Positions 38,729 through 53,213 of a stretch of DNA of 64,000 bases are shown one piece after another. Source of the stretch: a virus (Duplodnaviria; Heunggongvirae; Uroviricota; Caudoviricetes); IMG/VR virus record IMGVR_UViG_3300044796_000394, one strand, 5' to 3'. The notes beneath the pieces are model-generated. The model made no database searches, was not told where the DNA came from, and worked only from the letters and a program-made list of their open reading frames with translations. The number at the start of each line of letters is the position of its first letter. The stretch's first letter is position 1. The position numbers were made by a program, and so were the translations under genes.

Positions 38729-38798
38729 AGGACGTATTGCGTGGGAGTAACATCGAACTCCAAATCCGAATGAGACGGTTCGAATCCGTCACGTCCTA
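38729..38798 (+). tRNA. tRNA-Trp(CCA), short irregular D-arm
   Basis: AGGACGT/ACGTCCT acceptor; loop CTCCAAA; T-arm GACGG-TTCGAAT-CCGTC. Confidence 0.75.
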
Positions 38799-38814
38799 CT
38801 TAGAAAAGAGGAAA

Positions 38815-45485: not shown

Positions 45486-45749
45486 ATGTCGTATTCAGGG
45501 AAACGAATCATGGCAACAGTAAAGTTCCAATTTGAAGCTGGCATGGTTGTGCGAAGTGATGTTCGCTCAATCATTAAAAAGTATTGCTTTCGGTGGAATT
45601 ATGATTTGGCCATTGAAGAGGATGCCGGATTTTTTTCTACGACTTTTTATTGTAAGGTTAAGTGTCCAGACTCACAAAGCAAACTGGCCAAGGAACGAAT
45701 CAATACATTGTTGATCGCATTGAAAAATCAACTTGACAACGGCAAATAG
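45486..45749 (+). CDS. hypothetical protein
   Basis: 87-aa ORF. Confidence 0.55.
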   Translation: MSYSGKRIMATVKFQFEAGMVVRSDVRSIIKKYCFRWNYDLAIEEDAGFFSTTFYCKVKCPDSQSKLAKERINTLLIALKNQLDNGK

Positions 45750-45760
45750 GTGTGTATAAT
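45733..45760 (+). promoter_or_regulatory. sigma70-type promoter for the trpS operon
   Basis: TTGACA-16 nt-TATAAT, ATG 45768 near predicted +1. Confidence 0.65.
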
Positions 45761-45767
45761 GGGTGAA

Positions 45768-46070
45768 ATGTCGCCATTCGCCTCTCGTGGAAGGGGCTTA
45801 GTTAGACAGGGTGTTAAACCTATTTATAACTATGTGAGTGGCCCGTTCGCAACTTACATACAAGCGGACACGTATCGGCGAAATTGTTGTCATATGGGGT
45901 TTGAGATAGTGACGTTGGATGCGGTGACGGGCGGCGGATTTCGTCCCCCGAACTATCCATCCTACGGTTTCTATATTGTTCACCATCTGAATAAACATCC
46001 ACAAACGCCACCACCCGAACCAGTTGTTAAATCAACTTTCAAAACCTACTTTCGTGAGGCAAAAAAATGA
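45768..46070 (+). CDS. hypothetical protein
   Basis: Ends in ATGA overlap with trpS leader start. Confidence 0.6.
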   Translation: MSPFASRGRGLVRQGVKPIYNYVSGPFATYIQADTYRRNCCHMGFEIVTLDAVTGGGFRPPNYPSYGFYIVHHLNKHPQTPPPEPVVKSTFKTYFREAKK

Positions 46071-46796
46071 CTATGGTGTTACTTTGGCTCTAAGAACCTT
46101 TGCGGTTTGCGTCCTACGGGTCGCCTTCATATCGGTCACTACTTCTCGGTAATCTTGCCGGGTCGTGATGGGGCTGAAGTCCTCATAGCCAATTATCACG
46201 CTCCGCAAGAAACCAACTTGGAGGAGCTTGTTAAAGTTCTCAACAAATTCGGTGTAAACCAAATCAGAATGCAGCGTGATGTATTCAATGCCGAACTTTA
46301 CTTCCGCCTTCTCTCAATTGCCGGTTTTGGCGATTTAGCCAGAATGCCGCAATTCAAATCGGCTGATGAAGACAAACAAACTGGTCAACTACTCACCTAT
46401 CCAGTCTTGATGACACACGATGTCGTCGGCTATGAGAACGTGTTGGTAGGTGAAGATCAGAAGGTGCATTTGGAATACGCTCGTAGGCTAATTCGCAAAT
46501 ACAACAAAACCTTTAATGAAGAAGTTGTTTTGCCTCGTCCGATGATTGTTGGCGGGAAAGTTAAGGACTTGCGGAAGCCGACTGAAAAGATGAGCAAGTC
46601 GTCACCTGATGGTTGTTTGTTCCTTGACGATACGCCCGACGATATTCGTACAAAATTGAAGGCAGCAACCACGACACCGGAAGGGATAGAGAACCTTTCT
46701 ACATTGTACACTCATTTTGTTGGGCCTACAGTGCCTTCTATGAATTCTGAGCTTAAGTCTCAGTTGGCAGATGCTTTGATTGAGGCTTTTAAATAA
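46067..46796 (+). CDS. trpS: compact tryptophanyl-tRNA synthetase, probably made by +1 frameshift
   Basis: CGLRPTGRLHIGH, YPVLMTHD, VLVGEDQ, KMSKS; SD GAGG + ATG 46067 is one frame off the catalytic ORF. Confidence 0.85.
46073..46093 (+). promoter_or_regulatory. putative prfB-like +1 ribosomal frameshift cassette with Trp codon
   Basis: ATGGTG TTA CTT TGG CTC TAA versus prfB AGGGGG TAT CTT TGA C. Confidence 0.65.
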
Positions 46797-46815: not shown

Positions 46816-46998
46816 ATGCAAACCGCACCGTTAGGTCATTGGATAGCATTTTTCCTTTCCATGATCACATTGATATTTTTATCAGTGGTTCCAGCAACCG
46901 ATTTATCAGTTAATCAAAAACTGATTACTGCTGTTTATTTATTTCTATTTGGCCTTATTGGATTTCTAATTGGGCGAATTGGAACAAAAAAAGATTGA
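46816..46998 (+). CDS. small membrane protein
   Basis: Two TM segments; SD AAGGA. Confidence 0.6.
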   Translation: MQTAPLGHWIAFFLSMITLIFLSVVPATDLSVNQKLITAVYLFLFGLIGFLIGRIGTKKD

Positions 46999-47023
46999 CT
47001 TTCTGTAATGATGCGGGTATAGT
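46995..47023 (+). promoter_or_regulatory. sigma70-type promoter
   Basis: TTGACT-17 nt-TATAGT. Confidence 0.7.
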
Positions 47024-47075
47024 ATCTCTATGAAACCCGGCTAGACCAAGGCCGATACTTTATGAGGATTTTGCG

Positions 47076-47801
47076 ATGGAAGCGTTGTATGACAAAAATG
47101 GCTTAATGTTTTATTCGGAGCGGGAAGTCAAGTTGCGGGAACAGTTCCGTGATTACTTTGCGGATCGAATGAGGGAAACGTTGTTAGCGACGAATCCTAT
47201 GTGGCGGTTTTTGATGGTGGAAGCACCTCTGTTAACGCCCAACAAACACATCAACAAGAATTACACTGCCGAAGATGTATTCGTGTGTGACGATCTAACC
47301 TTAAGGCCGGAAACGACGCCGGGTACTTATCAGTGGATTCGTTCCAAGTTTGATGACAGCAACAGTGGTTTTCGTCCCCCGATTTGCGTTTGGCAATACG
47401 GCAAGAGTTTTCGGCAAGAACAGGATCAAGTATCAAAGCATTGCCGGTTCAAAGAGTTTTACCAGCAGGAATTCCAGTGCGTCTTTACGTCGGATACTGC
47501 GAATGATTATCACACGGTTTTACAAAAACCGGTTGAAAAGATGATTCGTGATATGATTGGCTTGCCGACTCGGTTGGTGGTTAGTGATCGGTTGCCGGAT
47601 TACAGCAAGAGTACAATGGATATCGAAGTAGACAACGGCGACAAGTGGATGGAAGTTTGTAGTATGAGCCTGCGAACCGATTTTCCCGGTACGGTCAGTT
47701 TCACGACCAAAACGAAGGTTGTGGAAAGGGATCTGTTGGTTGCGGAGGTTGCCATCGGTTTAGATCGGTGTGTTTACAATTTCCTGCAAAGGGTAGATTA
47801 A
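47076..47801 (+). CDS. minimal class II aminoacyl-tRNA synthetase catalytic core, GlyRS(alpha2)-like
   Basis: LRPET, GKSFRQE (motif 2), RFKEFYQQE, RTDF, AIGLDR (motif 3); no anticodon-binding domain. Confidence 0.75.
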   Translation: MEALYDKNGLMFYSEREVKLREQFRDYFADRMRETLLATNPMWRFLMVEAPLLTPNKHINKNYTAEDVFVCDDLTLRPETTPGTYQWIRSKFDDSNSGFRPPICVWQYGKSFRQEQDQVSKHCRFKEFYQQEFQCVFTSDTANDYHTVLQKPVEKMIRDMIGLPTRLVVSDRLPDYSKSTMDIEVDNGDKWMEVCSMSLRTDFPGTVSFTTKTKVVERDLLVAEVAIGLDRCVYNFLQRVD

Positions 47802-53135: not shown

Positions 53136-53209
53136 GGGCCTATAGTTCAACCGGGGAGAACATCCAACAGGAATGTTGGAAGGTCGAGGTTCAAATCCTC
53201 ATAAGCCCA
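53136..53209 (+). tRNA. tRNA with undetermined anticodon (aberrant loop)
   Basis: Normal acceptor/D/T arms; anticodon arm TCCAAC-AGGAAT-GTTGGA without U33. Confidence 0.55.
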
Positions 53210-53213
53210 CTTT

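Follow-up and report, generated by a model that had tools for sequence, protein, structure and literature searches.

The trpS-like gene described here raises a simple question, namely how ribosomes enter its reading frame. The gene, which is predicted to encode a tryptophanyl-tRNA synthetase (TrpRS), belongs to a 430-kb virus record from IMG/VR (IMGVR_UViG_3300044796_000394, Caudoviricetes; 43% GC, 38 predicted tRNA genes), from which a stretch of 64,000 nucleotides, hereafter the window, was analysed. The TrpRS frame is closed on its 5' side by a TGA at 46068-70, directly 3' of which it reads LWCYFGSKNLCGLRPTGRLHIGHY, and it ends at a TAA at 46794-96. The first ATG, GTG or TTG within it is a TTG at 46107, which lacks a Shine-Dalgarno (SD) sequence. 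An earlier note on this DNA had proposed that the frame is entered by a +1 frameshift resembling that of prfB, the RF2 gene, with a Trp codon in place of the stop codon, so that synthesis of the enzyme would respond to the supply of charged tRNA-Trp. Comparison with homologous loci supports the frameshift interpretation and, as discussed below, favours the proposed response to charged tRNA-Trp.

A putative +1 frameshift cassette precedes the TrpRS frame

The elements of the locus are collected in Table 1. The TGA that closes the TrpRS frame is overlapped by the ATG of a short 0-frame ORF (ATGA), which has its own SD sequence, and a slip of one nucleotide from CTT 46082-84 to TTT 46083-85 would bring ribosomes into the TrpRS frame at GGC 46086. 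The predicted product of such a shift, MTMVLL-GSKNLCGLRPTG..., has 242 amino acids and contains no Trp. The sequence thus agrees with what had been claimed about the mini-ORF and its SD sequence, and about the position of the slip. The cassette also resembles the prfB site as had been suggested, since GGTG stands exactly 3 nt from CTT, which is the spacing of the SD-like element in prfB.

Table 1. Coordinates of the features discussed in the text (positions in the window)
Feature	Position	Strand	Remarks
Phage tRNA-Trp(CCA)	38729..38799	+	Predicted tRNA gene
Upstream ORF	45750..46070	+	No Pfam match; same frame as TrpRS; ends with TGA 46068-70
Shine-Dalgarno GAGG	46056..46059	+	7 nt before ATG 46067; serves the short 0-frame ORF
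0-frame mini-ORF, ATG ACT ATG GTG TTA CTT TGG CTC TAA	46067..46093	+	8 codons; ATG overlaps the upstream TGA
Internal SD-like GGTG	46075..46078	+	Exactly 3 nt before the slippery CTT
Spacer TTA	46079..46081	+	Would be the E-site codon when the shift occurs; variable across loci
Putative shift heptamer CTT TGG C	46082..46088	+	CTT 46082-84; TTT 46083-85; TGG 46085-87; GGC 46086-88
Predicted compact TrpRS body	46086..46796	+	+1 frame; 236 codons plus TAA; PF00579
HIGH motif	46128-46139	+	P0001 residues 20-23
KMSKS motif	46587-46601	+	P0001 residues 173-177

On the window sequence by itself the motif GGWG-NNN-CTTTGG is weak evidence: it occurs once in the window, and at least once in 13 of 100 shuffled sequences. 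The full cassette architecture is found at a single site in the 430-kb genome. The weight of the case comes instead from the 31 distinct homologous loci that keep the motif, which are described below.

The gene product is a predicted compact TrpRS

Several lines of sequence and model evidence identify the product as what appears to be a compact TrpRS of the bacterial type. It matches PF00579 with an E value of 1.1e-29, and the family profile retrieves bacterial TrpRS from the PDB at 1e-31, with TyrRS at 1e-12 or worse. The HIGH and KMSKS motifs are invariant in the family alignment (A1), as are L-M-x-H-D-V and G-E-D-Q, which align to PLMAADIL and VGEDQ of 5dk4; the last two we take to be the Trp-specific pocket (equivalents of Met129 and Asp132 of B. 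stearothermophilus TrpRS, and GxDQ). An AF2 model with a pLDDT of 89.9 has a Rossmann fold, and its best 50 fold matches in the PDB are all of the TrpRS fold, 49 of them being natural bacterial or mitochondrial TrpRS and one an esterase designed on that scaffold. The TMq to TrpRS-fold structures is 0.75-0.84, and the TM-score normalised by the target is about 0.6.

In the model the first four residues (LWCY) are predicted to be disordered, and strand beta1 is formed by NLCGL, that is, 5' of the TTG 46107 codon and including it. Both sequence and model therefore agree with the claim that the TrpRS frame encodes the first Rossmann strand upstream of its only near-start, and a protein started at this TTG would be expected to lack beta1. 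The C-terminal anticodon-binding helical domain is incomplete: the product has about 240 residues in comparison with 320-345, about 90 residues are missing, and three helices follow KMSKS. The enzyme would charge tRNA-Trp, an activity that stays putative because those C-terminal residues are missing.

The cassette is conserved across distinct homologous loci

Relatives were collected from DNA in IMG/VR, JGI and ENA metagenomes, Logan assemblies and GTDB genomes; those in IMG/VR were found by an alignment-based scan, and a single-protein scan of IMG/VR found no relatives. The TrpRS family comprises 1515 proteins at E<1e-10, the closest homologue (P0003) being 82% identical. No near-identical DNA was found in cultured or GenBank phages, in which the best tblastn matches were 34% identical genes of huge phages with a plain ATG start. 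Cassettes were counted as distinct homologous loci, 31 in all including those of 30 relatives, with amino acid identities of 53-77% and saturated synonymous sites. All relatives of at least 53% identity with readable upstream DNA share the cassette, except one locus with a plain start (L055) and two damaged ones (L033 and L052).

The TrpRS body lies in the +1 frame relative to the ATG in all 31 cassettes. A purine-rich SD sequence is located 5-10 nt before the 0-frame ATG in the 29 relatives (29/29) whose upstream DNA can be read, the remaining one (L026) being cut at a contig end. The ATG is separated from CTT by 3-5 codons, and by 11 codons in one locus; two loci (L009 and L029) have in common the mini-ORF beginning ATG ACT ACG GTG. 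The SD-like element is GGTG in 27 cassettes and GGAGG in four (L024, L032, L034 and L056; for example CGGAGG TAT CTT TGG C in L024), it always ends at position -4, 3 nt from CTT, and its G-7 and G-4 are invariant. The spacer codon varies (TGT in 11 cassettes, CGT in 10, TAT in 6 and others in 4). CTTTGG is found in 31 out of 31 and is followed by C in all of them except L007, which has T, and the 0 frame is closed 0-11 codons past TGG in every cassette.

This pattern points to constraint on the nucleotides of the cassette, because third positions in the body are randomised (0.02-0.06 bits at invariant Pro, Thr and Gly codons) and cassette positions that would be synonymous in one or the other frame are invariant (2.0 bits). 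The earlier note had asked for the SD-NNN-CTT-TGG motif and the frame offset to be looked for in phage trpS homologues, and had held that a continuous frame in them would speak against the model. Both features are present in the 31 distinct loci, and a continuous frame is excluded by the offset that all of these cassettes keep.

Alternative routes into the TrpRS frame

A frame that lacks a start codon could be the trivial result of an assembly or sequencing indel, or of gene decay, and the window does come from a single metagenomic contig. An equal offset is nonetheless shared by 31 distinct cassettes, whose DNA was obtained from many samples and put together by many assemblers, and the catalytic motifs are invariant in the body; the persistence of the cassette across independent assemblies makes an assembly indel or a private mutation untenable, so that this explanation deserves almost no credence. 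About as little can be given to readthrough or recoding of TGA 46068, which would fuse the upstream ORF, lying in the frame of TrpRS, to the enzyme. That ORF is not kept elsewhere, its place being taken at many loci by tRNA genes, and the nearest upstream +1-frame stop is TAA in 12 of the 31 loci and TAG in one; in the nearest relative (L057) a TAA stands 5 codons upstream. Readthrough of this TGA, which the earlier note had named as a result that would count against it, is thereby excluded, and TGA recoding in general is rejected on the same 12 loci. In 10 of the 31 loci the start codon is overlapped by a TGA (ATGA) that shuts the +1 frame there, and ORF coverage under alternative genetic codes did not discriminate among codes.

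Somewhat less improbable, and still very unlikely, is that the mini-ORF acts as a Trp-sensing leader peptide and that ribosomes begin the enzyme at TTG 46107, or reinitiate once past the 0-frame stop, with no frameshift at all. Bacterial trp genes are indeed regulated by leader peptides with Trp codons, and in the window a TTG in the enzyme's frame follows the site at a distance of 8 codons. A leader peptide or uORF calls for a start and a ribosome-binding site belonging to the downstream gene itself, and in 17 of the 31 loci no ATG, GTG or TTG is found in the +1 frame until past the PTG/HIGH motif, which disposes of a start at TTG 46107, another result that had been named as adverse. The codon equivalent to this TTG encodes Phe or Leu in the relatives, and the stretch G-S-K-x-L-C-G that precedes it is kept as protein, with synonymous changes. 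Its Leu codon before Cys-Gly, for instance, may be CTT, CTG, TTG, TTA, CTA or CTC, and such synonymous variation indicates that it is read as Leu by elongating ribosomes and not as a start. Other means of entering the frame were also considered and rejected. Transcriptional slippage has little to act on, since the T run is just 3 nt long and the A7 run (46061-46067) lacks conservation; for a non-canonical start in the +1 frame, no NTG or ATN is available between the +1-frame stop and TTT in L004 and L010, inspected by eye; and the TTG contained in CTTTGG belongs to the third frame, which is closed after 22 codons.

The position at which the frame would change can be delimited from stop codons in individual loci. 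In L007 a TGA directly follows TGG, and in L004, L012 and L031 a +1-frame TGA stands 4 codons before TTT, so that the shift is confined to GTG-NNN-CTT(-TGG), that is, to three or four codons, within which re-pairing is possible only at CTT_T. Taken with the comparison above, the sequence evidence makes it very likely that the TrpRS of this phage is expressed by a programmed +1 frameshift, and we infer that ribosomes do shift at CUU_U.

Evolution of the cassette and tryptophan content of the enzyme

In a maximum-likelihood tree, all the cassette-bearing genes (those of GGAGG type, L024, L032, L034 and L056, being counted as such) fall in one clade. More distant relatives (43-47% identity), such as the huge-phage genes in LR756501 and LR756502, have a plain SD-ATG start with a protein beginning as MK-x-L-V-G-I-R-P-T-G. 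Only two plain-start members, L055 and L035, are found inside the cassette clade. L055 is nested among the closest relatives of the window with 99-100% support, and in it the cassette is replaced by GGAGGTG-ATG (MNKRLCG); a secondary loss of the cassette is well supported by this placement. L035 lies on a long branch. The clade also includes two damaged copies. L052 (positions 1480-1520), a variant of L020 from a sibling sample, is missing 8 nt (GGTGCGTC), and with them the G of the ATG, the SD-like element and CTT's C; it is either a defective copy or an assembly variant. In L033 (positions 540-600) the N-terminal region up to HIGH is replaced and has a stop in front of it, and this gene is probably a truncated or recombined pseudogene.

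The absence of Trp from the product, which had been claimed for the window, is borne out and holds for all 29 distinct cassette-bearing bodies, which contain no Trp in 6467 residues. Eleven Trp residues are present in 13 plain-start relatives, at least one in 7 of the 13, including L055 and L035. The difference in Trp presence is significant by Fisher's test without correction for phylogeny (p = 6e-5), and the correlation is partly phylogenetic. Of 120 homologues in the database, 118 lack Trp after the HIGH motif. As for the phage's own ORFs of 200-300 aa, Trp makes up 1.9% of residues on average and is absent from 6 of 131. Both L055 (in GHW) and L035 have acquired a single Trp in the body of the enzyme, as would fit a selection against Trp that is relaxed after loss of the gate.

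A candidate sensor of charged tRNA-Trp

The mechanism that we propose is as follows. Ribosomes would initiate at ATG 46067, and after four to five codons CUU would be in the P site and UGG in the A site, while GGUG, 3 nt upstream, would pair with the tail of 16S rRNA and favour slippage. With charged tRNA-Trp arriving quickly, UGG would be decoded and translation would stop two codons later, yielding a useless octapeptide. With charged tRNA-Trp arriving slowly, the pause at UGG would be longer, and peptidyl-tRNA-Leu could re-pair from CUU to UUU so that GGC is read next. The shifted ribosomes would make a synthetase that itself needs no Trp, and restored charging would close a negative feedback loop. 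The phage carries a single predicted tRNA-Trp(CCA) gene and a tRNA-Leu(GAG) gene among its 38 tRNA genes; the former is likely to be both the substrate of the enzyme and one decoder of the sensing codon.

It can also be the case that the shift is real and programmed but constitutive, setting a fixed low level of TrpRS with no response to charged tRNA-Trp. Many viral frameshifts have a fixed ratio (PMC5009743), and conservation of the cassette proves the shift site and not its regulation. A fixed ratio, on the other hand, could be obtained with a stop or any slow codon, yet the codon in the A site is the cognate TGG in 31 out of 31 loci; moreover, the cassette-bearing bodies are strictly free of Trp, which is found in the plain-start L055 and L035. 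The combination of an invariant TGG, the cognate enzyme and a Trp-free body favours sensing over a shift of fixed ratio, which we consider unlikely while giving it more weight than any of the other alternatives. If the frameshift is accepted, it is probable that its rate rises as Trp-tRNA falls.

Two features temper the model. GGTG is a 4-nt match to the extended SD sequence, weaker than GGAGG, and at equal spacing its pairing with the 3' tail of 16S rRNA would be displaced by 2 nt to the 5' side, so that one can be less sure than in prfB that it stimulates the shift. Besides, peptidyl-tRNA drop-off is frequent near the start codon, and a shift site 3-5 codons from the start lies in this drop-off-prone zone, which counts against the model. 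All things considered, the probability that a prfB-like +1 shift gates TrpRS with feedback from Trp-tRNA is roughly 0.7.

Genomic neighbourhood

A perfect sigma-70 consensus promoter (12/12; TTGACA-16-TATAAT) is located at 45733-45760, just 5' of the ORF preceding the cassette, and probably drives the transcript that carries it. On the other side of TrpRS, at 46995-47801, there is a gene for a 241-aa protein similar to a class II aminoacyl-tRNA synthetase (aaRS) catalytic core (PF00587, E 2e-11), a second truncated synthetase adjoining the first. This gene has its own SD sequence and an ATG at 47076, a mini-ORF was noted ahead of it, and a promoter-like site (TTGACT-17-TATAGT) accompanies it at 46995-47023. 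Farther downstream, directly 5' of three tRNA-Thr genes, a tRNA predicted by ARAGORN at 53136-53210 has an anticodon of four bases (ggaa) and thus an anticodon loop of 8 nt; it may decode quadruplets or be prone to frameshifting, or it may be a tRNA for Phe or Ser that was mis-called.

The compact TrpRS genes of the related loci (L004-L058) are usually embedded in phage arrays densely packed with tRNA genes, of which there may be as many as 17 in 3.7 kb. Of the 29 related loci scanned, 9 have tRNA-Trp genes (CCA, sometimes duplicated; 12 in total) no more than 1.5 kb from the homologous TrpRS gene. Odd tRNAs with 2-base 'anticodons' were called in L005, L006 and L037, and in L056 (positions 1-130) a reverse transcriptase of the group II intron type (RVT_N, RVT_1, GIIM, HNH) lies just 5' of the TrpRS-bearing tRNA array.

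Comparison with known systems

The prfB site is defined by an SD-like element, a 3-nt spacer, CTT_T and an RF2-specific stop (TGA, rarely TAA) followed by C (PMC12421855). In its AGGGGG-TAT-CTT-TGA-C, as in the phage cassette, the SD-like element stands 3 nt from CTT, CTT_T is read by tRNA-Leu, and C follows the A-site codon. Both genes, too, have a short 0-frame and a functional +1-frame product that speeds decoding of the A-site codon, which yields a negative feedback that is putative in the phage. The phage site is nevertheless a variant of the prfB site and not a member of that class, since its A-site codon is the sense codon TGG (31/31) instead of an RF2-specific stop. Accordingly it would sense charged tRNA-Trp and not a release factor, and the gene encodes a phage aaRS. 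It also lies 3-5 codons from the start, in comparison with codon 26 in E. coli prfB, and its SD-like element is mostly GGTG. The RF2 site with sense codons was reportedly used by Curran and Yarus in 1989 to measure rates of aminoacyl-tRNA selection. Kinetic analysis of the RF2 site indicates that P-site slippage, E-site release driven by the SD-like element and a hungry A-site codon act jointly in +1 shifting (PMC2377451).

The +1 heptamer of Ty1, CUU_AGG_C, owes its shift to the slow decoding of AGG and is a single base away from CUU_UGG_C; in both, as proposed for the phage site, the P-site CUU slips by one base next to a slow A-site sense codon, and the next +1 codon is GGC (PMC5009743). 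Ty1 differs from the phage cassette in that it is eukaryotic, has no SD stimulator, depends on a constitutively rare tRNA-Arg and sets a fixed Gag/Gag-Pol ratio.

The regulatory logic, in which shortage of a charged tRNA raises the gene that relieves it, is that of trp leader-peptide attenuation, trpS T-box riboswitches and the thrS operator. In trpL it is the Trp codons that serve as ribosomal sensor. In these systems RNA structure controls the termination of transcription or initiation, whereas in the phage cassette there is neither a terminator/antiterminator nor a separate start, and the reading frame would be the switch. The enzyme likewise shares HIGH, KMSKS, LM-x-H-D, GEDQ and the Rossmann fold with bacterial TrpRS (class Ic, PF00579), and differs from it in its length (about 240 aa vs about 330), in lacking most of the C-terminal anticodon-binding domain, in having no Trp and in its location inside phage tRNA arrays.

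Significance

The earlier note had regarded the feedback loop as one not known to be described, and in agreement with this, the searchable full-text literature yielded no account of frameshifting in trpS or another aaRS gene. In a 2016 review of recoding it was considered that hungry-codon shifts could in principle yield functional trans-frame proteins under starvation, of which 'no examples are known' (PMC5009743). If our model is true, the cassette is an example of the functional hungry-codon frameshifting that this review lacks. It is somewhat probable that it represents the first natural +1 frameshift at a hungry sense codon that is both sensor and effector, in which a single UGG in a prfB-style cassette reads charged tRNA-Trp and yields the cognate Trp-free synthetase, in a design that may be general for aaRS genes in phages.

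There are practical consequences as well. Gene callers give ragged and often truncated N-termini for these genes, and the database products start at internal or non-ATG codons. At 20 nt the cassette is compact, which makes it a candidate portable reporter of Trp-tRNA charging in vivo. If the model is true, moreover, a sense codon has taken the place of the stop codon as target of the RF2 frameshift design, and T-boxes, attenuators and operator mimicry are joined by a new way of regulating aaRS genes. Large phages that carry tRNA arrays of their own may by such means match synthetase supply to tRNA charging during infection, for example in the face of host shut-off, starvation or tRNA-targeting defence.
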